Below, in pieces: positions 3,991 through 23,790 of a DNA stretch of 24,000 nt; the stretch's first letter is position 1; the number at the start of each line of letters is the position of its first letter. The stretch is from Caldovatus sediminis (GTDB lineage Bacteria; Pseudomonadota; Alphaproteobacteria; Acetobacterales; Acetobacteraceae). The notes under the pieces are model-generated. The model worked only from the letters and a program-made list of their open reading frames with translations. It was not told the DNA's origin and searched no databases. The stretch is from positions 425,032 through 449,031 of the forward strand of contig NZ_BMKS01000004.1 of NCBI RefSeq assembly GCF_014644455.1, written 5' to 3'. The translations under genes and the position numbers were made by a program.

Positions 3991-3991
3991 G

Positions 3992-4555: not shown

Positions 4556-4610
4556 CGCCCGCGCCCGCGCGCGTCGCGCCGGATCCGCGCGCGCGCGAGG
4601 CTGCCGCGCC

Positions 4611-6211: not shown

Positions 6212-6224
6212 GAGGGAGCGAGCC

Positions 6225-6992: not shown

Positions 6993-6995
6993 CCT

Positions 6996-8492
6996 ATGGC
7001 CTACCTGTTCGGCGACGGCTTCGACGTCTACAGCACCACCAGCGACCTGCTGACGGCTTGGGACAGCATCTTCCAGGACGGCCACACCGGCAACATCGTC
7101 CTGCCGGCCTCCGCCACCGCCTTTGGCCTCGGCGGTGCGGTGGCGACCATCGCAAACCTCGGCGGCTTCAGGCTGACTCGAGCACTGGGGCAGAATGTTG
7201 GTACCCTCTATGTCAATCTCCGCCTCAAGCGGACCACCTCCTCCTCCCACTACTTCTACCTCCAGCTGCTGGACGGCGCTGCGGCGCAGGCAACGGTGCG
7301 TTGGAACGATGACGGCTCGCTCACCGTCCACACCGGCGGTGCGACTGGCACGCAGCGGGGCCAGGCCACCGGCGCCACCGCCCAGAACGTCTGGGACTCT
7401 TGGCAGATCAAGGCGGTGGTCCACGACACCGCCGGCAGCGTCGAGGTGCGCAAGAACGGCAGCGCTACCCCGACCCTGCTGGTCGGTGGTGTCAATACCC
7501 GTGGCGGCAGCACCAACGCCTACGCCAACGGGCTCGTGCTCGGCACCAACAACGGCGGGGCGGTGTCGCATTGCGACGACCTGCTGGTGTGGTCCGGCAG
7601 CGGCGCAGCGCCCAACGACTGGCTCGGCGACGTGCGGGCGGTGACGCTCGCCCCAGCCAGCACCGTGCAGGCGCAGTTCACGCCCGGCCCGGCCGCGATC
7701 GGCAACATCACCCAGACCACGACGCGCAGCGAGAACGCCAACACCATCGCTGCCTTCCTCTACCAGTCGCCGGCGCAGGGGCATGCGAGCAGCATCGGCG
7801 TAACGCTGACCTCCACCATCACCGGCAGTCTCAACGCCGCGCTCTACGCCGACAACAACGGCGCCCCCGGCGCCCTGATCGCCCAGGGATCGGGCGTCAC
7901 CAACCCCACTGCCGGGCTGGTGACGATCCCGTTGCAGGGCGCACCGGTGACGGTGCCGCAGGGGCCGGTGTGGGTAGCGCTGTGGGCCAGCGCCAACTGC
8001 ACCTTCGCGGCCGGCGCCAGCGGCACACGCGCCGGCCAGTCGCTGACCTACGGCGCGAGCTTCCCCAACCCGATGGTGCCGGGAACGCCAGGATCGGCGG
8101 CGCAGCCTGTGCTGGCGCTGGCGCTCGCCAACCCGGTCCAGCATTCGCTGCTGCGCCATCCGACGGACGGCGATGCCGGCTACGTCTACGCGGCGACGGT
8201 TGGCGCCCAGGACCTCTACGGGGTGGAGACGCTGGCCAGCAAGGGGGTCGCGCCGGCCTCGATCGTCGGGGTGGCGCCGTTCGTGGTCGCCAAGCGTTCC
8301 GACAGCGGTACACGCACGCTGCAGGTGATCGCCAAGTCCGGTGGTGTCGAGGCGGCGGCGGCGGGCAGCGACGCGGTGTCGCTCTCCTACCAGCGCCTGG
8401 TGGGGTTCCTGGGCACAGACCCGGCGACTTCGGCGGCGTGGACGCCGAGTGCTGTGGACGCGCTGCAGCTCGGCCCCAAGATCAGCGCCTAG
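6996..8492 (+). CDS. Putative receptor-binding / host-recognition structural protein (jelly-roll, ConA/LamG-like appearance)
   Basis: ATG 3 nt after the upstream stop, with GGGAG at 6984-6988. The protein is 498 aa, beta-rich and Gly/Thr/Ser/Asn-rich (FGDGFDVYSTTSDLLTAWD..., LNAALYADNNGAPGALIAQGSGVTNPTAGLVTIPL). GC is visibly lower locally (for example 7140-7260). Confidence 0.45.
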   Translation: MAYLFGDGFDVYSTTSDLLTAWDSIFQDGHTGNIVLPASATAFGLGGAVATIANLGGFRLTRALGQNVGTLYVNLRLKRTTSSSHYFYLQLLDGAAAQATVRWNDDGSLTVHTGGATGTQRGQATGATAQNVWDSWQIKAVVHDTAGSVEVRKNGSATPTLLVGGVNTRGGSTNAYANGLVLGTNNGGAVSHCDDLLVWSGSGAAPNDWLGDVRAVTLAPASTVQAQFTPGPAAIGNITQTTTRSENANTIAAFLYQSPAQGHASSIGVTLTSTITGSLNAALYADNNGAPGALIAQGSGVTNPTAGLVTIPLQGAPVTVPQGPVWVALWASANCTFAAGASGTRAGQSLTYGASFPNPMVPGTPGSAAQPVLALALANPVQHSLLRHPTDGDAGYVYAATVGAQDLYGVETLASKGVAPASIVGVAPFVVAKRSDSGTRTLQVIAKSGGVEAAAAGSDAVSLSYQRLVGFLGTDPATSAAWTPSAVDALQLGPKISA

Positions 8493-8495
8493 CCG

Positions 8496-9284
8496 ATGCC
8501 GTTCGCCACCTGGGACCCGGGCCAGCTCAGCGCCGTCACGCTGAGCAACGGCAACCTGACGGCGACCGCGAGCGGCGCCGGCGGCGTGCGCGGCCAGGGC
8601 ACCAACCGCAGCGGCAAGTGGTACTGGGAGATCACGCTGCCGACCTGGGCCAACGCCAACACCAGGGTCGGCGCCTGCACGGCGGCGGCGACGGTCGGCA
8701 GTTTCGGCGCCAGCACGCCGCCCGCCTTCGCCGTGACGGTGCGTCGCGACGGCGGCATCTATCTGGGGAGCGCGAGCACCGGCCTCTCGCTGGGGGCGCG
8801 GGCCAATGGCGACGTGATCGGCATCGCCCTCGACCTCGACGCCGGCAAGGTGTGGTTCCGCGCCGGGGCGAGCGGCAACTGGAACGGCTCGACCGCGCAC
8901 AACCCGGCCACCGGCCAGGGCGGGGTGTCGCTGGCGAGCCTCGGCTATGGCGGCGGGGCCAACTGGTATCCGATGGCGGGCTTCGGCGCCGCCAACGACC
9001 AGGCCGTGGCCAACTTCGGCGCCAGCGCATTGGTCGGCGCCGTGCCGGGCGGCTTCACCGCCGGCTGGACCACCGATACTGCCATCACCCACGCAGTGGC
9101 CAGCACCGCCGGCGCCGAGGTGTGGGCGCGCGATCCCGGCACGCTGCGGATGGATGCCGCCGGCGCCGAGGTGTGGTTCTTCAACCGCACCGAGATGCTG
9201 GTCACGGCGGCCGGCGCCGAGGTGTGGTTCGTCGGCTCCGCCGTCGCCCTCCGTCGTCGCCGTGTGGTCGCGCTCCTGCAGTAG
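8496..9284 (+). CDS. SPRY (B30.2-like) domain-containing phage tail protein with a C-terminal AGAEVW triple repeat
   Basis: GKWYWEITL...GDVIGIALDLDAGKVWFRAGASGNWNG...NWYPMAGFGAANDQAVANFGAS matches the SPRY hallmarks (G-x-YWEV, GDVIG-x-x-LD-x-x-x-G-x-x-x-F, terminal NFG). ATG is 3 nt after the upstream stop. Confidence 0.65.
   Translation: MPFATWDPGQLSAVTLSNGNLTATASGAGGVRGQGTNRSGKWYWEITLPTWANANTRVGACTAAATVGSFGASTPPAFAVTVRRDGGIYLGSASTGLSLGARANGDVIGIALDLDAGKVWFRAGASGNWNGSTAHNPATGQGGVSLASLGYGGGANWYPMAGFGAANDQAVANFGASALVGAVPGGFTAGWTTDTAITHAVASTAGAEVWARDPGTLRMDAAGAEVWFFNRTEMLVTAAGAEVWFVGSAVALRRRRVVALLQ
9108..9227 (+). repeat. Three perfect copies of gccggcgccgaggtgtgg at exactly 51-nt spacing (9108-9125, 9159-9176, 9210-9227)
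   Basis: Read directly from the sequence. The repeat is in frame and encodes AGAEVW every 17 residues at the C-terminus of the SPRY protein. Confidence 0.95.
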
Positions 9285-9293
9285 GGGCCCGCC

Positions 9294-9998
9294 ATGACGC
9301 CCGCCACCTGGCCCGTCGCCACCGCCCCCTTCGCCACCGCACCGGCCGGCGCGGCGGCCGCCCCCGGCCCCGAGCCGGGCGCCGGGCCAGAGACGCGCCT
9401 GCGCAGCGCCGAGGACGTCCTCGCCGAGCTGCTGGCGCTGCTGCCCTCGGGCTGGGCCTGGCCGCGCGAGGCCGACAGCGCGCTCGCCCGCCTGCTGCGG
9501 GGGGCGGCGGCGGAGATCGCCCGCATCGAGGCCGCCGCCGCGGCGCTGCTGGCGCAGGTGGACCTGCGGGCGGCGGACGCGCTGCTGCCGGACTACGAGC
9601 GGGTGCTCGGCCCCGACCCGTGCGGCCGCGACCTGCTCCTGACCGGCCTCGACGAACGCCGCCGCGCCGCGCACCAGCGCTGGACCGCCGGCGGGCTGCA
9701 GACGCCCGCCTACTTCGAGGCGATCGCGGCGCAGCTCGGCGTGCCGGAGGCCCGGGTCGAGGAGAGCCGCCCGTTCGTCTGCGGCGGCGCCGAGGCCGGC
9801 ATGGAGCTCGTCCCGCCCGCGGAGGTCTTCGTCTGGCGGATGCACCTGCCGCCGACGCGGGTGATCGAGTTCGAGGCCGGCGGCGCCGAAGCCGGCGCGC
9901 CGCTCGGCGAGATCGTGCCCGCGCTGGTGGAGTGCGTGATCCGCCGCCTCGCCCCCGCCCACACCACGCCCGTCTTCTCCTACCCGGAGGCTGCCTGA
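9294..9998 (+). CDS. Mu gp48/R-like tail protein (DUF2313 / YmfQ family)
   Basis: LLALLPSGWAWPREADSALARLL...LPDYERVLG...RRAAHQRWTAGGLQTPAYFEAIAAQLG...VFVWRMHLP is the typical DUF2313 pattern. There is a Pro/Ala-rich N-terminal leader of about 35 aa. Confidence 0.75.
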   Translation: MTPATWPVATAPFATAPAGAAAAPGPEPGAGPETRLRSAEDVLAELLALLPSGWAWPREADSALARLLRGAAAEIARIEAAAAALLAQVDLRAADALLPDYERVLGPDPCGRDLLLTGLDERRRAAHQRWTAGGLQTPAYFEAIAAQLGVPEARVEESRPFVCGGAEAGMELVPPAEVFVWRMHLPPTRVIEFEAGGAEAGAPLGEIVPALVECVIRRLAPAHTTPVFSYPEAA

Positions 9999-10561
9999 TG
10001 GACCGGATCAACGGCGCCAACACCGTGGACATCGGCGGGGGCCGCAGGGGCTTCCGCGACCGCAACCTCCTCGCCGGCCTCAGCGGGACGCAGGTCACCG
10101 CCGCGTTCCTGAACGGGCTGCAGGAGGAGGTGCTCGGCGTCATCGAGGGAGCGGGGCTGACGCCGAACGAGGCCAATTGGGGCCAGCTGCTGGCCGCGAT
10201 CCAGGGCCTGGTCGCGGCCGGTGCGGCGAGCGCGGTGGCCGCCGCCCTGAACACGCCGCAATTGCTCACCGCCGCCGGGTACAAGGTGTTCCCGGGCGGG
10301 CTGATCCTGCAGTGGGCGAGCACGGCGGTGCCGGACTGGGGCGCCGGCACCGGCGAGGCGGCGGGGACGCTCGCCTGGCCCATCGTCTTCCCCGCCGCCT
10401 GCCTGGCGGCCTTCGTCTCGCTGCAGGACGATGCTGCGAGTGAGGGGAAGTCCGTGGCGCGCGTGACGACCAAGACCGCGTCCGGGATCACGTGGCGGCT
10501 GCAAGAGTGGGCCGATAGCATCAATCCCACGACCCTATGGGCACTCGGGATCGGGGTTTAG
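9998..10561 (+). CDS. Short tail fibre protein (conserved fibre N-terminus plus gp53-like C-terminal domain)
   Basis: The ATG shares one base with the upstream TGA (ctgATGg). GTQVTAAFLNGLQEEVLGVIEGAGLTPNEANWGQLLAAI is a common fibre N-terminal motif. GYKVFPGGLILQWAS...WPIVFPAACLAAFVS resembles gp53-like C-terminal domains. The ORF-track start at 7400 is spurious. Confidence 0.6.
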   Translation: MDRINGANTVDIGGGRRGFRDRNLLAGLSGTQVTAAFLNGLQEEVLGVIEGAGLTPNEANWGQLLAAIQGLVAAGAASAVAAALNTPQLLTAAGYKVFPGGLILQWASTAVPDWGAGTGEAAGTLAWPIVFPAACLAAFVSLQDDAASEGKSVARVTTKTASGITWRLQEWADSINPTTLWALGIGV

Positions 10562-10572
10562 GGGGCAAGACG

Positions 10573-11055
10573 ATGGCTGTGCTCTTCTCTGCCGCGACCC
10601 GCGGCTTCTACGACCCGCAGCTGCATGCCCCGGCCAGCGTGCCGGAGGATGCGGTGCCGATCTCGCGCGAGGAGCATGCCGCCCTGCTCGCGGGGCAGGC
10701 CGCCGGCAAGCGCATCATCCCCGGGGCGGACGGGCGGCCGGAGCTCGCCGACCCGCCCGCGCCGCCGCCCCCGCCGCCGGTGCGCCGCCTCGCGCCGCTT
10801 GCCTTCCGCCGGCGCTTCCCGCCGGCTACGCGCGCCGCGATCACCCTCGCCGCCGCGCAGGCGCTGGCCGCCGGCGACCCGACGCTGCAGGTGTTCCTCG
10901 ACGACCTGGCCGCGAGCCGCTTCGTGGACCTCGACGCCCCGGAGACCCGGGCCGGGGTGGCGGCCATGGTCGCCGCCGGGCTCCTGACCGAGAGCGAGGC
11001 CGCGGCGGTGCTCGCCGACGGCACCCCGGACGAGGCCGCCGGCAGCCCGGCATGA
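10573..11055 (+). CDS. Tail fibre assembly / chaperone-like protein
   Basis: ATG at 10573 after GGGGG. The N-terminus FSAATRGFYDPQLHAPASVPEDAVPISREEHAALLAGQAAGKRIIPGADGRPEL is typical of phage fibre-assembly proteins. A poly-Pro linker is present, and the gene sits 3' of the fibre gene. Confidence 0.5.
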   Translation: MAVLFSAATRGFYDPQLHAPASVPEDAVPISREEHAALLAGQAAGKRIIPGADGRPELADPPAPPPPPPVRRLAPLAFRRRFPPATRAAITLAAAQALAAGDPTLQVFLDDLAASRFVDLDAPETRAGVAAMVAAGLLTESEAAAVLADGTPDEAAGSPA

Positions 11056-11309: not shown

Positions 11310-11365
11310 TCGCCTGTCACGCTACACCCTCCCCGGCGGCCCGGCGGGGCTGCTAGGGTGCCGCA

Positions 11366-12343
11366 ATGTCCTCCCCGCTCGGCACCCCCCGGGTGCGCCC
11401 GCCGCGCCTCGTCCCGCAGACCGGTCCGGCGCTCTGGCAGGCCGGCGAGCTGTCGCCTTCGGACTGGATGATCCCGCTCGGCCAGGAGGCGGAGGCGGAG
11501 CTGGACGCGGCGATCACCGCGCTCGGCGGCCGGCGTCCGGAGCGCGCGGCCGAGGTGCCGCTGCCGACCCTCTCCCCGGTGATCGCCGACCTCCGCGCGC
11601 GGCTCGAGCACGGGCGCGGCTTCGCCCTGCTGCGCGGCCTGCCCTTCGACCGCCACGGCACGGCCGGGGCGGAGGCGCTGCTGCTCGCGCTCGGCCTGCA
11701 CCTCGGCATCCCCCTGCCGCAGGATGCGGCGGAGCCCGGCGGCCCGGTGACGCATCTGGCGAGCGCGCCGATCGGGGGCGCGACGGCCGCGCCGTTCCAC
11801 GCCGATCCCTGCGACGCGGTGCTGCTGCTCTGCCTGCGCCAGCCTCCCGCCTCCGGCGCTTCGGCCCTGATCTCGGCCATGGCGGTGCACAACGCGCTGC
11901 TTAAGCGCGACCGCGCGGCGCTGGAAGCGCTGTACCAGCCGCTGCCGCATCGCGAGGCCGATGGCTCAGTGGCGGCGCGGCCGGTGTTCAGCGTGACGGG
12001 CGGGGCGTTCAGCGCACGCTACAACCGCGCCGCGATCGAGGACGCGGCAGCGACGCCGGGCGTTGCTCCGCTGGAGCCGGCGCAGCGCGCCGCGCTCGAC
12101 GCACTGGACGCGGCGTGCACCGATCCGGCGCTGGCGCTGCGCATGGAGACGCGGCCCGGCGACCTGCTCTGCTTCAATCCCCAGCTCGTCTGGAAGCGCC
12201 GTTCGCCGCCGGCGGCGGGCCCGGCGGAGGCGCCCGACCGCACCCGGGAGTTCCTCCGGCTGCGCCTGCTGACGGCCAACTCGCGCACCGCAGCCGCCGC
12301 GGCGGCCCCGTCGGTGCCGCCGCCTGCCCCTTGGCAGGGCTAG
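11366..12343 (+). CDS. TauD/TfdA-family (clavaminate-synthase-like) protein, apparently lacking the distal iron-binding His
   Basis: GRGFALLRGLPF..., FHADPCDAVLLLCLRQPPASGASALIS (HxD at 11798-11806) and RPGDLLCFNPQLVWKRRS...REFLRLRLL align with the family pattern PGD-x-x-x-x-NN-x-x-x-x-H-x-R...R-x-W. There is no His anywhere after PLPHREADG. Confidence 0.7.
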   Translation: MSSPLGTPRVRPPRLVPQTGPALWQAGELSPSDWMIPLGQEAEAELDAAITALGGRRPERAAEVPLPTLSPVIADLRARLEHGRGFALLRGLPFDRHGTAGAEALLLALGLHLGIPLPQDAAEPGGPVTHLASAPIGGATAAPFHADPCDAVLLLCLRQPPASGASALISAMAVHNALLKRDRAALEALYQPLPHREADGSVAARPVFSVTGGAFSARYNRAAIEDAAATPGVAPLEPAQRAALDALDAACTDPALALRMETRPGDLLCFNPQLVWKRRSPPAAGPAEAPDRTREFLRLRLLTANSRTAAAAAAPSVPPPAPWQG

Positions 12344-12523
12344 CGCGCCAGCCTACCCGCGATCGTCCCGGCCGCGGACCGCCAGCCGGACGCCAGGGTG
12401 TGGATCGTCGGCGTGAACGGGACCGGCTCCGAGGCGCCTGGGCGAGGACCGCCGGCAGGACGGGCGGGCATCAGCCGCTGCCCGCGGCGCGAGCGGCCGC
12501 GCCGCCCCTCCGGCACGGGAGCG

Positions 12524-12928
12524 TCAGGCGCGGGCGGCGGCCCGATCGGGCTGCGCGAGCGCCGCGAACAGCGCGGCGCGCACGGCGGACACGGCGCGGC
12601 TCGGGGCGCTGGCCTCGGCGGCCTGCGGCGGCTCGGCCGCGGCCACCGTCGCTTCGGTCTGTGGGGAGGGGCTCTCGACCGCAACGGACACCGTCGGCGG
12701 CGCGTCCGCGGACCCGGTCGGCGGGTCCATGGCGGCCGCCACCGGCAGGGCGGTTTCGGGCGACGCGGTGATCTCGTGCGACGGCGACCGCGGACTGGAC
12801 GGCTCGTCGCGGTAGAGCTCCAGCACCCGCCCCACCGCCGCAAGCCGGCGGAAGGTCGTGGTGGCGCGCAACTCGGCGCAGAGTCGCATCTCCTCGGCCC
12901 GGAGGGTGGCCAGGAGGTCGCTGCCCAT
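12524..12928 (-). CDS. Hypothetical small protein (N-terminal helix, Pro/Ala/Ser/Thr-rich disordered remainder)
   Basis: AAGGAG lies 6 nt upstream of the ATG at 12928. Third-position GC is near-uniformly high across all 134 codons. No family was recognised. Confidence 0.6.
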   Translation of the reverse strand: MGSDLLATLRAEEMRLCAELRATTTFRRLAAVGRVLELYRDEPSSPRSPSHEITASPETALPVAAAMDPPTGSADAPPTVSVAVESPSPQTEATVAAAEPPQAAEASAPSRAVSAVRAALFAALAQPDRAAARA

Positions 12929-12954
12929 AGCCGGCTCCTTCTAAACCAAGGGTG

Positions 12955-13005
12955 GAAACCTAACGAGAGATATATACCATTAGGAAGGTGATCCGACAAT
13001 CGGAT
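12955..13005. promoter_or_regulatory. Second low-GC island: CCTAA-N16-TTAGG dyad, TATATA, and perfect palindrome ATCCGA-caa-TCGGAT (12991-13005). Likely promoter/operator of the 12928 gene and/or the 3' end of the upstream operon
   Basis: Read directly from the sequence. ATACC-(2-3 nt)-TTAGGAA occurs here (12974-12986) and at 11255-11268. Confidence 0.25.
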
Positions 13006-13073
13006 TCCAGCGCTCCGGCCGCCGCCGCGCCCCTGCATCCCTTCCCGGACGCCGCGCGGCCGCCCGCTCCGGC

Positions 13074-14528
13074 TCAGAACGATCCGCCGGTCCTGAAGCC
13101 GCCGCCGCGGATGGTGCCGCCGGTGCGGAAGCCGCCCCGTCCGCCGAAGCTTCCGCCGCCCGTGCCGCCCGGCGAGGCGCCGCCGCCTTGCGGGATGCGG
13201 TGCTGGTCCATGCGGTCCCAGAAGCCGTCGCGGCTCAGCGCGCCGCGCAGCAGCTCGCTCAGCAGCATGCCGACCAGGGCGCCGTCGCCGAAGCTCCAGC
13301 GATCCTGGGCGTAGCCGCGCCGGCGCATCTCCTGGCGGATGGCGAGCAGCTCCTCGACCCGCCGCCGCGCGGCCTCGGCCTCGGTCCGCCGTTCGCCGAG
13401 GCGGCGTTCGACCTCCGCCCGCTCCGCCGCGGCGCGCTCCATGCGGGCGACCACCGCGTCGTCCTGCGGCGTCGGCGTGCGCGCGGCGGCCTCGCGCAGC
13501 TCGCGCACGCTGGCGTGGGCGAGGGCGGCCTCGAGCGCCGCGACGGCCCCGCGCGTGGCGGCGTCCTCGCCGGCGGTCAGCGCGGCGCGGCGGCGCTCGG
13601 TCTCCTCGAGCGCGGCGTGCGCGGCCTCCACCGCGTCCTCCGCGCGCTCGAGCGCCTGGCGCAGCGCCTCCGGCACCGTCGCGGCGCCCGCCGCCGCCGC
13701 GCGTTCGTATTCGGCGAGGTCGGCCGCCGCCGCCTCGGCGGCGTCGCGCATCCGCGCGGCGTGCTCGGCGAGGCGTTCGGGCAGCTCGGTCAGGAGCGCG
13801 TAGCTGCGCCGCGCGGACTCGTAGCGCGCGACGCGCGCGACCCAGCCGTCGAGCAGCCGCGCGATCGGGCCGGCGCGGTAGGCGGGCGTGCCGTAGCCGC
13901 GTCGCCAGAGGTAGAGGAAGAGCGGATCGGCCTCGTAGGGCCTGCCCTTCTCCTCGCGGTCGCGGCGCGCGAAGGCGGCCTTCCGGTCGGCGTGCCGGGC
14001 GACCTGCGCGGCCTCGATGGCCGCGTCGCGGCGGCGGCGCCATTCAGGGTCGGCGGCGGCAAGCCGCGCGCGCGTCTCCTCGAGCGCCCGCTCGGCCGCC
14101 GCCTCCGCCTCGTCCAGCCGCGCCGCCGCCCGGTCGCGCGCCGCGTTCGCCGCCAGCAGCGCGGCCTGGCGCTCGGCGAGCTCGGCCTCGAACGCGGTCC
14201 GGGCCTGCGTGCCCCGTTCGATCAGCGCGCGCGCCCTCCGCCCGGCCTCGTCGAGCCGTTCGAGCACCACGCCGCCGTCCGCGCCCCGCCGCAGGGCGTC
14301 GAGCCGCATCCGCGCGAGTTCGCGCAGCGCCTCGGCCTCCTCGCCGCGCAGCGCGTCGCGCCGGGCGGCGAGGCTGTCGGCTTCCTCCTGCACGGCCCGC
14401 GCCTCGCGCTCGGCGCGGGCGAGGCGCTCGTCCACGCCCTGCATGAGGTCGCCGCCGGTGAACGCGCCGTCGCCGCGGTCGGCGCCCCGTCGGCCGCCGC
14501 CACGGATCGCGCTGCCCCGCCAGTCCAT
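13074..14528 (-). CDS. Long coiled-coil protein with Gly/Arg/Phe-rich termini (gene C of the three-gene operon), function unknown
   Basis: ATG at 14528 lies 2 nt after the upstream stop (14531-14533). The protein is 484 aa: about 350 aa of Ala/Arg/Glu heptad-like sequence, an aromatic island KGRPYEADPLFLYLWRRGYGTPAYR, and a C-terminal GGGSFGGRGGFRTGGTIRGGGFRTGGSF. The ORF-track start at 15116 overlaps the upstream gene. Confidence 0.7.
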   Translation of the reverse strand: MDWRGSAIRGGGRRGADRGDGAFTGGDLMQGVDERLARAEREARAVQEEADSLAARRDALRGEEAEALRELARMRLDALRRGADGGVVLERLDEAGRRARALIERGTQARTAFEAELAERQAALLAANAARDRAAARLDEAEAAAERALEETRARLAAADPEWRRRRDAAIEAAQVARHADRKAAFARRDREEKGRPYEADPLFLYLWRRGYGTPAYRAGPIARLLDGWVARVARYESARRSYALLTELPERLAEHAARMRDAAEAAAADLAEYERAAAAGAATVPEALRQALERAEDAVEAAHAALEETERRRAALTAGEDAATRGAVAALEAALAHASVRELREAAARTPTPQDDAVVARMERAAAERAEVERRLGERRTEAEAARRRVEELLAIRQEMRRRGYAQDRWSFGDGALVGMLLSELLRGALSRDGFWDRMDQHRIPQGGGASPGGTGGGSFGGRGGFRTGGTIRGGGFRTGGSF

Positions 14529-14530
14529 CG

Positions 14531-15517
14531 TCACCACCGCAGGATCGCGCCCCCCGTCGTGTCCACGCTCCACTCCGGCCGCAGCGCGCCGGCGCGCTTC
14601 ACGCCGACCACCGGCCGGTCGATCACGCCGTCGGCGAGCTTGTCCTGGCGCACGCGCTCGAACTCCTCGGGCGTCACCCGCAGGCCCCAGCGCGAGACGG
14701 TGGCGCGGTGCCCGTCCTCCTCGCTCGTCACCGGCACCTCCACCGGTCGCCCGTCGCGGTCCACCGCCTCGACGATCAGGTAGAAGTTGCGCGCCCGCGG
14801 GTTGTCCTCCGGCACGCGCCAGACGCCGGAGGGCTCGCCGGGCCGGCTGACGATGCGCACCGTGTAGGCGAGGGAGGCCTGCTGGCGCAGCGCCTGGAGC
14901 TGCGCGAGGCGCGCGCGGGCGTCCGCGGCCGCGCCGGCGCGGGCCGCCGCCTCGCCCTCCGCGACCAGGCGGTCGGCCTCGGCGCGCGCCTCCGGCGCCT
15001 CGGTGGCGGCGAGCACCCGCTCGCGCTCGGCGCGCAGGGCGCCGGGCAGGCCGGTCTCGAGCTCGGCCTGGAGGGCGACGCGGGCGCGCTCGGCCGGCAG
15101 GCGGATGCCGAACCACCAGCCGCCGCCAAGGAGGAGCAGGGCGCCGAGGGCGAACAGCGCCGCGCGCCCCCAGCGCGCGCGCGTCGCCCAGAGGGTCGCG
15201 AGGCTGCGCTGGAAGGAGGGCGGCGTCGGCCGGTAGGCGAAGCGCTGCTGCTCGAGCGCGGCGACGCCTTGGTCGAGGATGCGCTCCGGAACCTCGATGC
15301 CCTGGGTGGCGTAGATCTCGCGCAGGCGCTGCTTGAGGCGCGCGCGGCGCGCGTCGCCCTGCAGCTCGCGCTCGACCAGGGTCTCGGCGTGGCGGAGCGT
15401 GTCCACCACGTCCATCGCGAGCATGGTCTCGTCGAGCGCGGGGGGCGGCGGCTCCCCGGGAGGGCGGGGCGGGGCGGCATCGGGCCGCGCCGGCGCCGCG
15501 GGGGCGTCAGGCGGCAT
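14531..15517 (-). CDS. Single-pass membrane protein (gene B), function unknown
   Basis: ATG at 15517 overlaps the end of gene A by 11 nt. It has a Pro-rich N-terminus, a helical block MLAMDVVDTLRHAETLVEREL, one hydrophobic span AALFALGALLLLGGGWWFGI, and a beta-rich C-terminal domain. An internal start at MLAMD is possible. Confidence 0.65.
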   Translation of the reverse strand: MPPDAPAAPARPDAAPPRPPGEPPPPALDETMLAMDVVDTLRHAETLVERELQGDARRARLKQRLREIYATQGIEVPERILDQGVAALEQQRFAYRPTPPSFQRSLATLWATRARWGRAALFALGALLLLGGGWWFGIRLPAERARVALQAELETGLPGALRAERERVLAATEAPEARAEADRLVAEGEAAARAGAAADARARLAQLQALRQQASLAYTVRIVSRPGEPSGVWRVPEDNPRARNFYLIVEAVDRDGRPVEVPVTSEEDGHRATVSRWGLRVTPEEFERVRQDKLADGVIDRPVVGVKRAGALRPEWSVDTTGGAILRW

Positions 15518-16739
15518 GCGTCGGACCGGGTGCCCCCGCGGCCGCGGCGGGCGCCGGCGGCAGGGCGGCCGCCTCCTGCGCCAGGCGCGCCATGCGCCGC
15601 TTCGCGTCCTCGACGCTGCGGCGGATCTCCTCGCTGTTCTCGGTGGCGAGCCGGCGCATCTCGGCGATGATCTCGCGCGAGCGTTCCTGGTAATTGACGA
15701 CGCTGTCCACGAGCCTCTTCACCGCCTCGGCGCGGATCGTCGGGCCGTAGCCGGCGCGCAGCGCCTCCTCCTGCACCTTGCCGCCGATCTCGGCCAGCGT
15801 CTCCAGGCTCCGCTCCACGCCCGCCTTCATGCCCTCCAGCGTGCGCGTGCTCTCGTGCAGGCCGTGCATGCCGGTGAAGCTCGCGGTCAGCGCGGTCAGC
15901 ACCGCCTCGTTGGTGGAGAAGAAGCTGACCGACTGCTGGTAGACGCGCTCCTTCGCGCTGGTGATCTGCACCAGGCGGGCCATGATGACCTCGGAGGTGT
16001 TGTAGGAGACGGTTAGGTTGTCGGCGAGGTCCTTGACGATCTGGTAGCGCGCCTCCTCCTGCTGGAGCGCGCGCAGCGCCTCGTCGCGCGCGAGCTCGAG
16101 CCGGGCGCGGGCGGCGGGGTCCGCGGGGGTGGCGTTCTCGACCGCGGCGGAGGCCGCTTCCATCGCGCGCCGCCGTTCCTCGAGGTGGCGCTCGGCGGCG
16201 TGCAGCAGCTCGAGCGCCATCACCTCCGCCTCCTTCAGCGCGCCGCGGAAGTCGCGGTAGGCCTCGAGGATGGCGCGCTCGCGCTCGATGTTCTCCTTGG
16301 TGTCGCGGGAAACGTCGAGGTAGGCGGCGCGGATGCGGTCGAAGCGCTGGGCGATGTCGCCGCGCCTGGCCTTCTGCCAGATGTTGGACAGGCGCTCGAG
16401 GGTGGAGATGCGGCCGTCCTCGATCTGGCGCACCATGGTCCGCGCGTCGTCGCGGATCGAGTTGAAGCTCTCGGTGATGGTCTCGTAGCGGCTGCCGATC
16501 TCCATCGCGCGGATCTGCTCGCGCACCACCTCGTTGAAGACGGTGGCCTGGTTGAGCACGCGCGCGATCAGCGCGACACGGTTCGGGTCGAGCTCGCCGA
16601 TGCGCGAGAGCAGGCCGGTGATCGGGCTCTCCCGGGCCGAGGGCTCGGGCAGCGGCAGGCCGAGGTCGCGCAGCGCGCCCATCGCCCTGTCGAGGTAGCG
16701 CATCGGCTGCGCGATGGCCGACTGGTGCTGCTGCCGCAT
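15507..16739 (-). CDS. TelA-like (toxic anion resistance family-like) all-helical protein (gene A)
   Basis: Purine-rich AAGGAGAGGG lies 7-10 nt upstream of the ATG at 16739. The protein is 410 aa and helical throughout. The segment order (RFDRIRAAYLDV...ERERAIL...; LVQITSAKERVYQQSVSFFSTNEAVLTAL) resembles TelA/YaaN as I remember it. The family call is unverified. Confidence 0.55.
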   Translation of the reverse strand: MRQQHQSAIAQPMRYLDRAMGALRDLGLPLPEPSARESPITGLLSRIGELDPNRVALIARVLNQATVFNEVVREQIRAMEIGSRYETITESFNSIRDDARTMVRQIEDGRISTLERLSNIWQKARRGDIAQRFDRIRAAYLDVSRDTKENIERERAILEAYRDFRGALKEAEVMALELLHAAERHLEERRRAMEAASAAVENATPADPAARARLELARDEALRALQQEEARYQIVKDLADNLTVSYNTSEVIMARLVQITSAKERVYQQSVSFFSTNEAVLTALTASFTGMHGLHESTRTLEGMKAGVERSLETLAEIGGKVQEEALRAGYGPTIRAEAVKRLVDSVVNYQERSREIIAEMRRLATENSEEIRRSVEDAKRRMARLAQEAAALPPAPAAAAGAPGPTHAA

Positions 16740-16947
16740 CTCTCGCCCTCTCCTTCGCCGCCGCCGCGGCCTGGCGGGGCGGAAGATGGGGGCGAGGCAC
16801 GGGGGCCCGCCATCGCCCGGGCTGCGGGCGGCCGCGGTCGCGCATCACGACGCGGTGAGGCGCGGGCGGCGGGCGCCGGAGGCCGGCGCCGGCGGGACGG
16901 GTCGAGCGGCACCGCGCCGGCCGACGGGCGCCCGGGAGCGGGCGGAA

Positions 16948-16968
16948 CGGCCGGGCGGCGTCCGGCCG
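16948..16968 (-). terminator. Possible weak intrinsic terminator after the DUF1127 pair
   Basis: CGGCCGG-N7-CCGGCCG hairpin 5 nt downstream of the stop at 16974-16976. Only UUCC follows it on the transcript, so there is no proper U-tract. Confidence 0.2.
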
Positions 16969-16973
16969 CGCCG

Positions 16974-17270
16974 TCACCACGGGCTCCGGAACGGCCTGCC
17001 CAGCGTGCGCGCGACCTCGTAGCGGTTCAGGCCGATGTCCCGCAGTTCGCGGTCGGACAGGGCGGCGAGCTCGTGAGCCTCGGTCATGCGCCGCCGCCAT
17101 CGGAGGAACAGCGTTGCCGGAAGGCGCAGGAGCGATGCGAACCGTCCGCCGAGGGGCCGGCAGCTAGGCCTGCCCGCCGGCGTCGCGGGCACGGCGGAGG
17201 CCGCGCCGGCACCCCGGCTGCATCGTTCGAGGTCGCAGGAGGGCGCGATGTCGCGACGGCCGATGTGCAT
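16974..17270 (-). CDS. DUF1127 domain protein, long form (98 aa if the ATG at 17270 is used)
   Basis: The C-terminus LRWRRRMTEAHELAALSDRELRDIGLNRYEVARTLGRPFRSPW is a DUF1127 signature. GGGGAG lies 4 nt upstream of ATG 17270, 9 nt after the previous stop. Third-position GC is high through most of the N-terminal extension, but the exact start is uncertain. Confidence 0.65.
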   Translation of the reverse strand: MHIGRRDIAPSCDLERCSRGAGAASAVPATPAGRPSCRPLGGRFASLLRLPATLFLRWRRRMTEAHELAALSDRELRDIGLNRYEVARTLGRPFRSPW

Positions 17271-17279
17271 GGCGCTCCC

Positions 17280-17708
17280 CTATGCGCGCCAGAAGGGCTT
17301 GGACGCCTCGCGCGCCGCGTCGTGGCGGCTGATGCCGATGTCCCTGAGCGCGGCGTCGGTCAGCGCGGCGAGGCGGCGGCGCTGCCGCGCGCGCTCCAGC
17401 CACAGCCCGAGGGTCCGCGACGCGCGCTCGATCGCGAGGGCGACGCCGGCGGTTCCCTCCGGGCGGCGCCGGGGCACGCCGGTCGCGATGCCGTTGGCGT
17501 CCGCCGGGGCGGCGAGGCGCGCGGCGACCGGTTCGGCACGCGGGAGGGCGGGGGCCCGGGCCGCAGGCACCCCCATCCGCGGATCGGACGGGCGCGGGTG
17601 TGGGCCCGCCGGCCCGGCGCGGCAAGCGCCCGCGATCGGGAGGTCCGGTTCGGCCTCGCGGGCGAGGGCGCGGCGGCGGGCGGGCCGGAGGTCGGTCTCG
17701 GTCGTCAT
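17280..17708 (-). CDS. DUF1127 domain protein, long form (142 aa)
   Basis: The C-terminus LWLERARQRRRLAALTDAALRDIGISRHDAAREASKPFWRA is a textbook DUF1127 motif. GGAG lies 8 nt upstream of ATG 17708. Only about 9 of 142 codons end in A/T, including across the roughly 100-aa Pro/Ala/Arg-rich extension. Confidence 0.8.
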   Translation of the reverse strand: MTTETDLRPARRRALAREAEPDLPIAGACRAGPAGPHPRPSDPRMGVPAARAPALPRAEPVAARLAAPADANGIATGVPRRRPEGTAGVALAIERASRTLGLWLERARQRRRLAALTDAALRDIGISRHDAAREASKPFWRA

Positions 17709-17919
17709 GGTCGCATCTCCGGTCTGGCAGCGATGCGAGCCTGCACGGCGCGCGCGGCCGTCGCGACCGAGACCTCCTCAAGTGCGATGAGCGTCGTTCA
17801 CCAGCCCGCCGCGACGCCCGCGGTCGCGAGGAGCGCGCCGGGAACAGGTCAGTCATGCTGCCCTTGGCGTGGAGCGGCACCGGCCTTTCTGGTTGCAATG
17901 CAGCAAAGAGGCGACCGGC

Positions 17920-18831
17920 ATGATGCGCAGGCAGTTGCCGCCGCTCGCGGCGCTCCGGGTGTTCGAGGCGGCGGGCCGGCGCGGCGGCTTCACCGCCGCG
18001 GCCGAGGAACTCGGCGTCACGCCGAGCGCCGTCAGCCACGCCGTGCGCACGCTGGAGGACCATCTCGGCCTGCCGCTGTTCCGGCGCGATCCGCGCGGCC
18101 TCGCGCTGACGCCGGCGGGCGAGGCGCTGCTGGCCGAGGCGAGCCGGGCCTTCGACGCGCTCGCGGGCACGGTCGGGCGGCTCGTCGCGGCGCGGCACGA
18201 GGCGGGGCTCCGCATCAGCGTGGCGCCGACCTTCGCCGCGCGCTGGCTGCTGCCGCGCCTGCCGGCGCTGCGGCGGCGGCATCCGGCCCTGGCGATCAGC
18301 ATCACCACCGAGCAGGACTGGGTGGATCTCGGCGACGGGCGCCGCGACCTGGCCATCCGCATGGCGCGGGAGCCGTCGGGGCCGGGCGAGTGGCACCGGC
18401 TGGTGCAGGAGCGCCTGGTCCCGGTCGCGGCGCCCGCGTTCGCCGGGCTGTCGCTCGAGGCGGCGCTGGCGCGGCTGCCGGCGATCCACCTGACCACGGT
18501 GAGCGAGGACTGGGCGGCCTGGGCGTCGCGGACGGGAATGGCGGCGCCGCCCGATCCGAGGAGGGGGCTGCGCTTCGACACGGCGCACATGGGGCTCGAG
18601 GCGGCGGCGCAGGGCCTCGGCGTGGCGCTCGGGCGCCTGCCGGCCTGCGCCGCGGACCTCGGCGCGCGCCGCGTGGTCGCGCTCGGGCCGGCGGTGGCGA
18701 GCGGGACGGCCTACTGGCTGGTCACCCGCCCGGGCCTGCTGCGCCAGCGCGACGGCCGCCTGCTCGCCGCCTGGCTGCGGGAGGAGCTGGCGGACCCGGC
18801 CGAGGCGCCGCAGGCGGAGCCGGCCGCGTGA
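17920..18831 (+). CDS. LysR-family transcriptional regulator (GcvA-like)
   Basis: The N-terminal HTH is LPPLAALRVFEAAGRRGGFTAAAEELGVTPSAVSHAVRTLEDHLGLPLFRR, followed by a LysR substrate-binding region. ATG at 17920 follows AAGAGG. The gene is divergent from the DUF1127 genes. Confidence 0.9.
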   Translation: MMRRQLPPLAALRVFEAAGRRGGFTAAAEELGVTPSAVSHAVRTLEDHLGLPLFRRDPRGLALTPAGEALLAEASRAFDALAGTVGRLVAARHEAGLRISVAPTFAARWLLPRLPALRRRHPALAISITTEQDWVDLGDGRRDLAIRMAREPSGPGEWHRLVQERLVPVAAPAFAGLSLEAALARLPAIHLTTVSEDWAAWASRTGMAAPPDPRRGLRFDTAHMGLEAAAQGLGVALGRLPACAADLGARRVVALGPAVASGTAYWLVTRPGLLRQRDGRLLAAWLREELADPAEAPQAEPAA

Positions 18832-18840
18832 CCGCGCCCC

Positions 18841-20106
18841 TCACCGAACCGCCGGCCGCGACGCCGCCCGCGCCACCGCGGCGAGCGAGGAGCCCTGCAC
18901 CACGATGCTGAACACGACCACGGCGTAGGTCGCGGCGAGCAGCGCCGGCTTGGCCTCCACCTCCGGCAGGGAAAGGGCGAGCGCGACCGAGATCCCGCCG
19001 CGCAGCCCGCCCCAGGTGAGGAGCCGCACCGTGCCCGGGCCGAAGTCGAGCCAGGGGCGCAGCGCGACGACCGGGCCCGACACCGCGGCCAGGCGGCCGA
19101 GCAGGGCGAGCGGGATCGCCGCGGCGGCGAGGCCGGCGAAGCCCGGGTCGAAGCGCAGCACCAGGACCTCCAGCCCGATCAGCAGGAACAGGACCGAGTT
19201 CAGCACCTCGTCGAGCAGCGTCCAGAAGCCGAAGACGTGGCGTTGCGTGTCCTCGCTCATCGCGTCCTGCGGGCCGCGGTGGCCGACCAGCAGGCCTGCG
19301 ACCACCACCGCGATCGGGCCCGACAGGTGCAGCGCCTGCGCGAGTGCGTAGGTGCCGGTGACGAGGCCGAGGGTGATCAGCGCCTCGATCGGGTAGTCGT
19401 CCACCTGCCGCATCATGCGGTAGGCGAGCCAGCCGGCGGCGGCGCCGAGCGCCGCGCCGCCGCCCGCCTCCACCACGAAGAGCCGGGCGATGCCGAGCGG
19501 CGTCGCCGCGTCGTGCTCGGGGCCGGTGCCGATGGCGATGGCGAGGAGGACGGTGAAGAGGACGACGCCGACGCCGTCGTTGAACAGGCTCTCGCCCTTC
19601 ATCTCGGTCTCGAGCGCGGCCGGCACGCGCACGACCTTCAGCGTCGAGAGCACGGCGACCGGATCGGTCGGGCTGATCAGCGCGCCGAAGACGAGCGCCC
19701 AGGGGAGCGGGATCGGGATGCCGAGCGGCGCCGAGAGCAGCCAGATGCCCACCCCGACCACCGCGGTCGAGACGACGACGCCGACCGAGGCCATCAGCGC
19801 CACCGATCCGGCGCGACCGCGCAGCTCCTCCAGGTCCACGTGCAGCGCACCGGCGAACAGGAGGAAGGCGAGCATCCCCTCCATCACCGTCGCCGTGAAG
19901 TCTATCTGACGCAGCGCCCCGGTGAGCGCCTCGTAGAGCTGCTCCTCGGGCACCGCGAGCTCGAACAGCACCAGGACGAGGGAGGATGCGAGGCCGATGA
20001 CCAGCAGGCCGATGGTGTGGGGCAGCCGCACGTAGCGGTAATTCAGCCAGGCGAAGGCGGCCGAGAGGGTCAGCAGCAGGGCGCCCAGCTCGAACAGCGA
20101 GAGCAT
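18841..20106 (-). CDS. Cation:proton antiporter, CPA1 (NhaP-type Na+/H+ exchanger)
   Basis: 421 aa and polytopic. ALISPTDPVAVLSTL, GESLFNDGVGVVLF and LTWGGLRGGISVALALSLP are typical Na_H_Exchanger motifs. Only the last third of the 18841..23235 track ORF is credible. Confidence 0.9.
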   Translation of the reverse strand: MLSLFELGALLLTLSAAFAWLNYRYVRLPHTIGLLVIGLASSLVLVLFELAVPEEQLYEALTGALRQIDFTATVMEGMLAFLLFAGALHVDLEELRGRAGSVALMASVGVVVSTAVVGVGIWLLSAPLGIPIPLPWALVFGALISPTDPVAVLSTLKVVRVPAALETEMKGESLFNDGVGVVLFTVLLAIAIGTGPEHDAATPLGIARLFVVEAGGGAALGAAAGWLAYRMMRQVDDYPIEALITLGLVTGTYALAQALHLSGPIAVVVAGLLVGHRGPQDAMSEDTQRHVFGFWTLLDEVLNSVLFLLIGLEVLVLRFDPGFAGLAAAAIPLALLGRLAAVSGPVVALRPWLDFGPGTVRLLTWGGLRGGISVALALSLPEVEAKPALLAATYAVVVFSIVVQGSSLAAVARAASRPAVR

Positions 20107-20292
20107 CGGTGGTCCCCCGGGGCGGGCGCCGCGCGCGCCTGCGCCTGCGGCGCCGTCGTCGCGGATTTTGCCGCGCCCGTCCAGCGCGCCGCCTGCGGCC
20201 GGTCGGCCCGGCGGGAGGGGCGGTTGTGGCGGCCCGCGGCGATCGGCTAGTTTCCGCCGCCGGGAAGCACACGACGCTGGGGGATCAGCCCG

Positions 20293-21309
20293 ATGACGCT
20301 CCGCCGAACCGTCCTGGCCGCCGTCGCCGCGGCCGCCGTCTGCGCGCCGGCCGCCGCGCTGGCCCAGGCCGCGCCGCAGTTCTTCCGCATCGGCACGGGG
20401 AGCGCGGGCGGGACCTACTACCCGATCGGCGGCATCATCGCGAACGCCATCTCCTGCCCGCCCGGCGCGCCCTGCGGCGAGGCCGGCGGCACCGCCGGCG
20501 TGCCGGGCCTGGTCGCGGTCGCGCAGGCGACCCAGGGCAGCGTGCAGAACGTCAACCTGATCCAGTCCGGCAACGCCGAGAGCGCCTTCAGCCAGTCCGA
20601 CGTCGCCCACTGGGCCTACACCGGCACCGGCCTGTTCGAGGGCCGCCCGAAGCTCGAGCGCCTGCGCTTCATCGCCCACCTGTTCCCCGAGCACATCCAC
20701 GCCGTGGTGCGCCGCGACAGCCCGATCCGCGGCTTCGAGGACCTGCGCGGCAAGCGCATCGCGATCGGGCTGCAGGCCTCCGGCGCGCGCATCGGCAGCG
20801 AACTGATCCTCGAGGCCAACGGCCTGCGCGCCGGCCGCGACTACACCGCGGAGTTCCTCAACCAGGCCCAGGGCACGGAGCGGATGCAGGACCGCGGCCT
20901 CGACGCCACCTTCACCGTGGTCGGCTACCCCGCCGCCGCCTTCTCCGAATTCTGCGCCCGCAGCGGCTGCCGCTTTCTGCCGATCGCCGGTCCCAACGCG
21001 CAGCGCGTGATCGAGCGCGCGCCCTTCTACGGCACCGGCACGATCCCGCGCGGCGCCTACGAGGGGCTGGAGGAGGACGTGCCGACCCTCACCGTCGGCG
21101 CCGTCTGGCTGGTGCGCGACAGCGTGCCGGAGGAGCTGGTCTACGGCATCACCCGCGCCCTGTGGTCGGACGTGACCCGCAATCTGCTCGAGCGCGGCCA
21201 CGCCAAGGGGCGCGAGATCGTGCGGCAGAACGCGCTGCAAGGCCGCGGCGTGGTGCCGTTCCACCCCGGGGCGGAGCGCTACTACCGCGAAGCCGGCATG
21301 CTGAACTGA
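20293..21309 (+). CDS. TAXI-family TRAP transporter solute-binding protein
   Basis: It has a signal peptide (AAVAAAAVCAPAAALAQA), the motif FRIGTGSAGGTYYPIGGIIANAIS, and a C-terminal VPFHPGAERYYREAGML. Confidence 0.9.
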   Translation: MTLRRTVLAAVAAAAVCAPAAALAQAAPQFFRIGTGSAGGTYYPIGGIIANAISCPPGAPCGEAGGTAGVPGLVAVAQATQGSVQNVNLIQSGNAESAFSQSDVAHWAYTGTGLFEGRPKLERLRFIAHLFPEHIHAVVRRDSPIRGFEDLRGKRIAIGLQASGARIGSELILEANGLRAGRDYTAEFLNQAQGTERMQDRGLDATFTVVGYPAAAFSEFCARSGCRFLPIAGPNAQRVIERAPFYGTGTIPRGAYEGLEEDVPTLTVGAVWLVRDSVPEELVYGITRALWSDVTRNLLERGHAKGREIVRQNALQGRGVVPFHPGAERYYREAGMLN

Positions 21310-21315
21310 GCCGGC

Positions 21316-23376: not shown

Positions 23377-23790
23377 GGCCGCGCGGCGGGCGGAGCGTCA
23401 GCCGCGGCGCGGCCCGTCGCGCAGCGCGTCGCCTGGTCGGGGGCGCACCTCGCCGGGCGCGGCCCCTCGCCATGGCCGGGCGCCGGGCTGCGCCCGCCGT
23501 CGCCTGACACCGTCGCGGGATCGCCCAAGAAGGCCCAGGAAGTATGAGAGGGATCAGCAAGCCGCGAGACGTTCGTTCCCGCTCTCCGTGCTGCCTTCCT
23601 CCCGCCGCGCGCCGCCCGCATCCGGGCCGTGGCGCCCGAGGACGCTGGAGCGGCGGTGATGCCGCGCCGGTCCTTGCCGCCCTGCCGGGCCAGTCGCGGC
23701 ACCGTAACCTTCGCCCGGCGGGCGGGACCGGCGAGGCGCGTCGGCGGCGGTCTGCCTGTCGGCGGCGCGGCTGCTCCCACGGTGCGGGCG

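Follow-up and report, generated by a model that had tools for sequence, protein, structure and literature searches.

A stretch of 24,000 nucleotides from Caldovatus sediminis (contig NZ_BMKS01000004.1, positions 425,032 to 449,031; hereafter the window) carries three closely stacked genes, here called A, B and C, and raises the question of what kind of system they encode. A preliminary description, made from the letters alone, had read them as an uncharacterised, envelope-associated operon with a TelA-like first protein, lying near a prophage. Our analysis upholds the uncharacterised, membrane-associated operon; the TelA assignment appears wrong or at least unproven, and the link to the prophage incidental. 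We find that A, B and C form a self-contained cassette present in bacteria, an archaeon, plasmids and a jumbo phage, and that B is a full-length member of the Pfam family DUF6384. We tentatively propose a structural role for the three proteins at the cytoplasmic membrane.

The operon was verified at the coordinates first given for it, with all genes on the minus strand and organised as follows.

16740-16973, minus strand: intergenic stretch 5′ of A, presumed promoter region
16746-16755, minus strand: Shine-Dalgarno-like AAGGAGAGGG, its 3′ end 6 nt before the ATG of A, read from the sequence
15507-16739, minus strand: gene A, an open reading frame (ORF) with its ATG at 16739, encoding 410 amino acids (aa), 45.8 kDa, isoelectric point 6.4
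15507-15517, minus strand: 11-nt overlap of A and B, ATGCCGCCTGA, between the A stop (15507-15509) and the B ATG (15517)
14531-15517, minus strand: gene B, 328 aa, DUF6384, with its ATG at 15517 and its stop at 14531-14533
13074-14528, minus strand: gene C, an ORF with its ATG at 14528, encoding 484 aa, 52.6 kDa, isoelectric point 9.35

The window is about 77% G+C and, as a consequence, long ORFs occur in all six frames. The G+C content at the three codon positions was 0.70/0.47/0.97 for A, 0.82/0.56/0.98 for B and 0.85/0.60/0.95 for C, the third-position values of 0.95-0.98 being the expected coding signature. The 11-nt overlap of A and B is consistent with translational coupling, and the same junction likewise consists of overlaps or short gaps in other loci. 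B and C are separated by 2 nt (B stop at 14531-14533, C ATG at 14528). The NCBI copy of C (P0271, Caldovatus sediminis, 100% identical, annotated ‘coiled-coil domain-containing protein’) starts instead at the GTG at 14534, which produces a GTGA overlap with the B stop. Since both starts keep the three genes tightly packed, translational coupling is plausible. Thus, the three-gene arrangement, the overlap, the gap, the high third-position G+C and the AAGGAGAGGG in front of A were all confirmed as described. The stretch upstream of A (16740-16973) contained neither a sigma-70-like site nor an Rfam family, and searches of the operon and its surroundings turned up no promoter, terminator, Rfam family or tRNA.

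Co-occurrence of the three families in other genomes was the next expectation of the preliminary description, and it was borne out. A genome scan with B, taking one genome per species, yielded 34 loci, mostly from Acetobacteraceae, with two metagenome-assembled genomes (MAGs) of Chthoniobacteraceae and one of Trueperaceae. Gene A lay immediately upstream of B in 33 of them, the exception (L027) beginning within B. C followed B in 30 of the 34, and in the other four the contig or locus stops no more than a few hundred bases from where B ends. Distant relatives of A led to a further trio in a Woesearchaeota MAG, where it sits beside an archaeal-type rpo and ribosomal-protein gene cluster. The trio was also present in two more loci (L041 and L042), including a low-GC bacterial contig, on a Pseudomonas aeruginosa conjugative megaplasmid, a Bradyrhizobium plasmid and the megaplasmid of M. 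extorquens (Methylorubrum) AM1, and in five metagenome contigs. Lastly, it corresponds to g190-g191-g192 of the 262-kb jumbo Yersinia phage phiR1-37 (L048, 6977-10808), annotated as hypothetical; scans of viral collections found this phage alone.

Two layouts of the cassette exist, one with A, B and C colinear and one with A divergent from B-C; B is always directly upstream of C and co-directional with it. Three adjacent families with B immediately 5′ of C, the arrangement that we took to define the cassette, were thus found. All-against-all clustering of the ORFs of 40 loci revealed nothing conserved besides A, B, C and their shadow ORFs. We considered a 134-aa ORF at 12524-12928 and the DUF1127 and LysR neighbours as a possible fourth gene and rejected them, none being conserved with the triad. 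A-B-C is therefore a self-contained cassette.

B is the member of the triad for which sequence and model say most. It matched PF19911 (DUF6384) over positions 4-308 of the 308 in the profile, with 386.3 bits (E 1.3e-115) for a gathering score of 25 bits, and the phage and plasmid B proteins also matched this family, with 92 and 150 bits, respectively. The AlphaFold2 (AF2) model of B has a mean predicted local distance difference test score (pLDDT) of 84, rising above 90 from about residue 120. It shows one long helix that contains the hydrophobic span and extends to residue 171, two more helices and then a beta-rich domain of about 110 residues. A helical block, one hydrophobic span and a beta-rich C-terminus were what had been read from the sequence, and B divides into the following parts.

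15182-15448, minus strand: conserved N-terminal helical domain of B, aa ~24-112, MDVVDTLRH...RLREIY..QGI, from alignment conservation; predicted cytoplasmic
15104-15163, minus strand: transmembrane span of B, aa 119-138, AALFALGALLLLGGGWWFGI, Kyte-Doolittle 19-residue mean 1.82
14873-15103, minus strand: helical stalk of B, aa 139-215, from the AF2 helices to residue 215; predicted outside the cytoplasm
14534-14872, minus strand: C-terminal beta-rich domain of B, aa 216-328, from the AF2 strands 218-325, pLDDT >90

Exactly one membrane span was seen in 11 of 11 diverse B homologues. In these same proteins the residues flanking the span had a net charge of +2 to +4 towards the N-terminus and of -3 to +1 towards the C-terminus, which by the positive-inside rule would place the N-terminal domain in the cytoplasm and the stalk and beta domain outside. 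The predicted topology of B is thus N-in/C-out. The stalk varies in length, with about 150 extra residues in the phage, plasmid and archaeal versions, and both end domains are conserved (alignment A7). Conserved residues of the beta domain include R234, Y246, K293, G297, K307 and the terminal Trp. Of 120 homologues, 117 indeed end in W, as do the archaeal, phage and plasmid copies.

In layout, B is similar to PilN/PilO, GspL/GspM and TolA, which also have their N-terminus inside, a single span, a coiled-coil stalk and a small outer alpha/beta domain. Unlike these proteins, B carries a conserved domain of about 85 aa that is predicted to be cytoplasmic, and we found no significant match to them in sequence or fold. 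PDB sequence searches with the single protein and with the family profile were empty, the best match of the profile being PilN at a non-significant E of 0.042 over the span and stalk only. Foldseek comparison of the B model with PDB gave no match at E<=0.001 (best E 0.13), and B had no match in NCBIfam, PADLOC or PHROGs. No pilus, secretion or Tol partner genes were found near the triad.

C, the last protein of the operon, belongs to an unnamed family and consists mostly of Ala/Arg/Glu coiled coil around a conserved aromatic island, with no membrane-grade hydrophobic segment. Three of its parts need to be distinguished.

13770-13955, minus strand: aromatic island of C, aa ~192-253, K-x3-Y..D.LF.YL..R......Y......R..D..VA...........Y..L...P, from alignments A5 and A8
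13077-13199, minus strand: Gly/Ser/Phe-rich flexible tail of C with the end motif F[RK][TS]GG[SG][FVI], from a comparison of 120 homologues
14466-14528, minus strand: lineage-specific Gly/Arg N-terminal extension of C, aa 1-21, from alignment A5

The island is kept from bacteria to the archaeon and the phage, L207 being invariant and about 15 positions nearly so. At the C-terminus, F, V or I follows GG[SG] in 118 of 120 homologues, the median G+S content of the last 40 residues is 0.59, and the archaeal, phage and plasmid copies retain an F-x-S/T-x-x-x-F/L/I ending. These same copies have lost the arginine of the tail. The loss of tail arginines in many lineages argues that RGG-type nucleic-acid binding is not a feature of the family. 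The N-terminal extension is missing in most homologues, which begin with M[VLI]xG about 21 residues further in. The coiled coil, the island and the Gly/Phe tail of the preliminary description therefore stand, while its RGG tail does not and its N-terminal Gly/Arg extension is lineage-specific rather than family-wide.

Searches with 31 members of the C family gave no consistent Pfam match, and nothing was found in NCBIfam, PADLOC, PHROGs or PDB with the single protein or the profile. Some annotation pipelines call C homologues ‘chromosome segregation ATPase’, and JGI labels three of them ‘YgcG’. The Gly/Phe-rich tail of C resembles TPM-domain/YgcG proteins in composition only, and C lacks a TPM domain. 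A 587-aa protein from an ENA metagenome (P0362) was examined as a candidate DUF6384-C fusion and rejected: its start lies within the beta domain of B, and its reading frame departs from that of B ahead of the conserved C-terminus. We take it to be, most likely, an artefact of a frameshift or of gene calling and not a fusion that exists in nature. Paralogy tests by hhalign among A, B, C and TelA were all at background.

A is the most conserved protein of the triad and belongs to a family without a name. Cross-phylum identity is 61-62% for A, 42-48% for B and 32-42% for C. The A family comprises at least 8000 clusters at 90% identity, and an exhaustive profile search returned 665 representatives at 50% identity. 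As first described, A was modelled as all alpha-helical (AF2, pLDDT 73), with helices at 128-202, 208-307 and 337-391, the first two being 75 and 100 residues long. Its maximum 19-residue hydropathy is 0.93 (family median 1.06), so that it has no membrane-grade segment, and only 2 of 85 family members exceed 1.6. Neither A nor C, as read, has an N-terminal hydrophobic leader; with no membrane-grade segment either, both look cytoplasmic. Searches of Pfam, NCBIfam, PADLOC, PHROGs and PDB with the single sequence and the family profile of A gave no match, and Foldseek with its model gave nothing at E<=0.001 in PDB or BFVD. No enzymatic or catalytic domain was detected in A, B or C by Pfam, NCBIfam and PADLOC searches, which also covered relatives of A and C, in agreement with the absence of enzymatic motifs first reported.

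A is also found away from B and C, where it may have alternative partners. In L039 (3560-6811, minus strand) the neighbours of such an A are proteins of 532 and 491 aa that are seemingly related and both end in a basic ...RKM. In L043 (8362-9429, plus strand) a 355-aa protein has a start that overlaps the A stop by 4 nt, on a contig rich in ankyrin-repeat genes.

Is A a TelA protein, as its supposed TelA/YaaN-like order of segments had suggested? In outline the systems resemble each other. The KlaA-KlaB(TelA)-KlaC and XpaC-YaaN operons, like A-B-C, combine a cytoplasmic protein of about 370-410 aa with a membrane protein in a small coupled operon, are common on plasmids, and have no enzymatic motif and an unresolved mechanism; the kilA-type operon, too, is a tightly coupled set of three genes. 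TelA, moreover, is taken to be alpha-helical, as is the A model. A might thus share a remote ancestry with TelA, and the operon be a diverged relation of the TelA/KlaABC or XpaC-TelA modules, which confer tolerance to tellurite and membrane-acting agents. TelA and XpaC have been linked to nisin and tellurite tolerance and to daptomycin resistance, by an unresolved mechanism (PMC12791056, PMC6811118).

The TelA profile (PF05816, gathering score 30 bits) did not match A at E<=1, nor any of 85 A relatives (24-60% identity) at E<=10. As positive controls, eight real TelA genes taken from plasmids, including B. subtilis yaaN and IncP klaB-type genes, scored 288-412 bits on the same profile. Alignment of the A family with the eight TelA sequences by hhalign gave a probability of 0.7% (P 0.078) and a score of 21.7, within the 16.9-23.4 of reversed controls; its top local alignment paired A 295-386 with YaaN 292-383. 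The hidden Markov model (HMM) of A scored three of the eight TelA proteins at 6-8 bits, compared to a maximum of 0.5 bits for reversed sequences and 2.6 bits for 78 shuffles. In the other direction, TelA HMMs gave A 12.3 and 7.1 bits, and reversed A nearly as much (8.1 and 6.4 bits). The best HMMER alignments of A and TelA were consistently colinear over the last ~90 residues and non-significant. The stretch concerned is the sole part of A with any such resemblance.

15582-15857, minus strand: C-terminal part of A, aa ~295-386, weakly resembling the TelA C-terminal helix by hhalign and HMMER; non-significant

We read this C-terminal hint as indistinguishable from convergence of helical patterns. 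Membership of A in TelA is thus rejected at the sequence level, by Pfam, by hhalign with reversed controls and by HMMER in both directions, and even a distant relationship between A and TelA seems rather doubtful. The partners are also of other kinds: KlaA is paralogous to TelA, and the KlaC-type proteins examined contain several hydrophobic spans and show no visible resemblance to B or C, which are a DUF6384 protein and a coiled coil with a Gly/Phe-rich tail. No ter, klaA, klaC or xpaC gene adjoins a triad in the 40 loci or in the flanks of 27 genomes examined, nor are there ter genes near the operon studied here. We therefore consider it unlikely that the operon is a divergent TelA module, a reading which overlaps in function with the membrane role that we propose below. 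One further observation concerns the kilA-type operons themselves: in L052 (2118-2891; P. aeruginosa p1160-VIM) a KlaA-type ‘tellurite resistance protein’ just upstream of TelA has a sub-threshold match to the TelA Pfam profile (E 9e-7, 28.7 bits for a cut-off of 30), from which such an operon seems to encode two TelA paralogues and a membrane protein.

The fold of the A model points weakly in another direction. Its Foldseek matches include SmhB, AhlB, AhlC, MakA and HblL1, with target-normalised template-modelling (TM) scores of up to 0.47 and Foldseek probabilities of up to 0.97, so that A could be conceived of as a ClyA-type alpha-helical pore-former, and the triad as a secreted or membrane-attacking toxin of three components like AhlABC, SmhABC, Nhe or Hbl, whose elongated helical bundles the A model weakly resembles. 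This match is below significance, however, all Foldseek E-values being at least 0.006 (0.09 for the best ClyA-family protein) and query-normalised TM scores at most 0.38. Unlike these toxins, A lacks a hydrophobic head (maximum hydropathy 0.93), B and C are unrelated to ClyA-like proteins, and A and C, with no N-terminal hydrophobic leader, appear cytoplasmic. Given also the presence of the cassette in an archaeon and a lytic phage, we consider a tripartite toxin highly improbable.

The best functional analogy for A-B-C is provided by the Psp and Lia systems (PspA-PspB-PspC; LiaH-LiaI), in which a soluble, oligomerising helical effector works with small single-pass membrane anchors or sensors and no enzyme is involved. 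The PspA_IM30 and Snf7 profiles were absent among the Pfam matches of A and its 85 relatives, and PspA or Vipp1 structures were absent from the top 50 Foldseek matches of the A model. Compared to the Psp system, there is no sequence similarity, PspA is half as large as A, the outer domain of B is large and C has no counterpart. A search of PADLOC-DB v2 with A, B and C gave a single chance-level match, to ZorA (E 0.016 over 55 coiled-coil residues). No described system of this composition could be found, as the preliminary description had anticipated, and A-B-C came out as a member of none of the known systems against which it was tested. By the Pfam, hhalign, HMMER and Foldseek comparisons made here, A-B-C appears to be new as a system, B being a named but uncharacterised Pfam family.

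Data on expression come from the phage. In the part of the phiR1-37 RNA-seq table covered here, g190, g191 and g192 are classed as not temporally regulated, with mean gene reads of 33,000-42,000, 14,000-16,000 and 16,000-24,000, respectively, vs. about 900-2,300 for the major capsid and 700-1,600 for the tail sheath genes (PMC4848604, Table S2). Expression is thus constant from early to late and very high, the three transcripts ranking with the most abundant of the phage at every stage and reaching about 15-40 times the major capsid transcripts, and only a handful of phage genes exceed 30,000 reads in the same part of the table. Neither this part of the table nor the GenBank record flags g190-g192 as virion-structural. 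Constant transcription at so high a level is easier to reconcile with a stoichiometric, structural role than with a catalytic or toxic one. A literature search found no functional study of DUF6384 or of g190-g192, and a full-text search for DUF6384 returned no papers.

Transcripts at this level, in the part of the table covered, also suggest abundant, structural proteins of another kind: a cytoskeleton-like or tethering scaffold for large replicons or for cell organisation, fastening for example the nucleoid, a plasmid or a phage factory to the membrane. Carriage by megaplasmids and a 262-kb phage is in keeping with this, as are the long coiled coil of C and its ‘chromosome segregation ATPase’ label in some pipelines. 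On the other hand, the triad has no NTPase and no recognisable DNA-binding domain, its chromosomal copies lie amid unrelated metabolic genes and not with par, ori or division genes, and the C tail arginines are lost in many lineages. We regard a scaffold of this sort as improbable.

The preliminary description had also called the operon possibly abortive-infection-like and suggested a test of its enrichment near prophages or defence islands. Patchy distribution with a horizontally transferred look, including conjugative plasmids and a phage, would indeed suit an anti-phage defence or abortive-infection system, or counter-defence or superinfection exclusion on phage and plasmids, acting at the membrane. 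In addition, a prophage ends about 2 kb away from the operon here, and one locus with A alone has AbiEii and methyltransferase genes nearby. However, no PADLOC model matches A, B or C, and the triad lacks effector domains, for example of the nuclease, NADase, protease or pore-forming type. We surveyed the nearest two ORFs on each side in 27 Acetobacteraceae genomes, a small sample of 71 ORFs rather than a genome-wide statistic: seven gave sporadic single PADLOC matches, and the Pfam content was otherwise ordinary, with metabolic, transport and regulatory genes (lactate/malate dehydrogenases, TRAP and ABC transporter components, AsnC regulators, PhoD). Neither defence islands nor prophage adjacency gave a signal in these flanks. 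At 60% identity across phyla, A is better conserved than is usual for a conflict gene, and the very high constant expression in a lytic phage, as far as the covered part of the table goes, misfits a toxic abortive-infection effector. No evidence for an abortive-infection-like function was found, and defence or counter-defence has a small probability in our view.

What, then, could the cassette do? We propose, as a possibility rather than a likelihood, that A-B-C is a membrane-anchored, non-enzymatic structural or envelope-integrity module, which would stabilise or remodel the cytoplasmic membrane under stress. We infer the physical interactions, the oligomerisation and the function of the three proteins from their architecture and context. 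A, B and C would assemble at the cytoplasmic membrane as a self-contained, horizontally mobile module. B would be its anchor or sensor, with a cytoplasmic N-terminal domain, one crossing helix, a variable stalk and an outer beta domain ending in Trp. A would be an abundant, elongated helical-bundle partner, brought to the inner face of the membrane by the cytoplasmic domain of B and self-associating there. C would act as a cytoplasmic linker, with a long and probably dimeric coiled coil, whose aromatic domain and Gly/Ser/Phe tail, with its terminal F-x5-hydrophobic peptide, may dock onto A or the N-terminal domain of B and so cross-link the assembly. The module would serve to keep the membrane or envelope stable, or to remodel it, during stress, like PspA-PspBC, LiaH-LiaI and TelA-type modules but without belonging to any of them. 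Such a role would be of use to cells, to conjugative megaplasmids and to a slow-growing jumbo phage, and would account for the presence of the cassette in all three.

We count in favour of this proposal the gene architecture with its coupling, the co-occurrence of A, B and C with nothing else conserved around them, the domain layout with a single-span, confidently modelled B and cytoplasmic-looking A and C, the lack of a catalytic domain, the conserved terminal peptides of B and C, the phage expression and the housekeeping flanks of the chromosomal copies. Several points weigh against it. The functional assignment draws on architecture and context only, and the searches detected no homology to members of the Psp, Lia, TelA or ESCRT-III groups. 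Confidence in the A model is only moderate (pLDDT 73), and structural searches with it gave no significant match. Several loci have A with no B or C nearby (L038, L039, L043, L062), suggesting that A can work, or at least persist, alone. Finally, the archaeal host has no peptidoglycan or outer membrane, which limits what the outer domain of B could recognise.

A bolder version of this membrane role, which we hold to be doubtful, is that A, DUF6384 and C constitute an unrecognised, ancient three-protein machine for organising or protecting membranes, unrelated to Psp/ESCRT-III, TelA, flotillin or dynamin. Identity of about 60% for A across phyla, presence in two domains, on megaplasmids and in a phage, and high transcription together suggest a basic, portable cell-biological function. 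If this were true, one machine would be common to several bacterial phyla, DPANN archaea, megaplasmids and a jumbo phage. Prokaryotes are known to have few non-enzymatic systems for membrane maintenance (Psp/Vipp1/ESCRT-III, flotillins, dynamins, TelA/Ter), and how these work is understood only in part. In any event, an anonymous DUF and two unnamed families become a defined three-part unit.

We turn lastly to the surroundings of the operon. The window opens with a Mu-like prophage tail/baseplate module on the plus strand (1-11055), and the operon lies about 2 kb beyond it, with a TauD-family gene and an orphan ORF that has its own AT-rich upstream region in between. On the other side of the operon lie DUF1127 ORFs and a regulator.

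within ORF 1012-3990, plus strand: gp44/GpP-like hub (Pfam)
3851-4555, plus strand: Gp45 (Pfam)
4556-6211, plus strand: Baseplate_J (Pfam)
6225-6992 and 6996-8492, plus strand: two ORFs with no Pfam match
8496-9284, plus strand: SPRY-domain protein (Pfam)
9294-9998, plus strand: Gp48 (Pfam)
12524-12928: orphan ORF, 134 aa, with no Pfam match and not conserved in related loci
16974-17270 and 17280-17708, minus strand: two tandem DUF1127 ORFs, 98 and 142 aa, directly upstream of A
17869-18831, plus strand: LysR regulator, divergent

The prophage module is real, as first described, and nothing beyond A, B and C is conserved over the 40 loci; since the flanks are ordinary and the neighbours do not travel with the triad, we take its adjacency to be incidental. 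Within the module, ORF 1012-3990 (plus strand, 992 aa) has Pfam matches confined to its last ~400 residues and is probably the hub gene run together with a non-coding stretch or another gene upstream, as is common at such a G+C content. The SPRY domain in the tail-fibre region is unusual for a bacterial prophage. The two DUF1127 ORFs are far longer than the 37-residue domain near their C-termini, which suggests that their true starts are further in. On the Bradyrhizobium plasmid (L046), too, a DUF1127 gene is located some 6 kb away from the triad, a pairing that is not conserved generally. Between C and the 134-aa ORF, the stretch 12929-13073 is AT-richer and contains an inverted repeat, CCTAA...TTAGG, around a TATATAT core, followed by GAAGGAG 6 nt before the ATG of the 134-aa ORF; it looks like a separate promoter/operator.

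A last observation concerns L041, a low-GC contig that also carries SecA. Beside the triad it encodes, at 3046-6837 and 11338-12696 (both minus strand), three proteins of 491, 459 and 308 aa ending in ...PRF or ...GRF, and a fourth, of 452 aa, that ends in ...PRFGR. These proteins could be a family sharing a C-terminal signal, for example secretion substrates.

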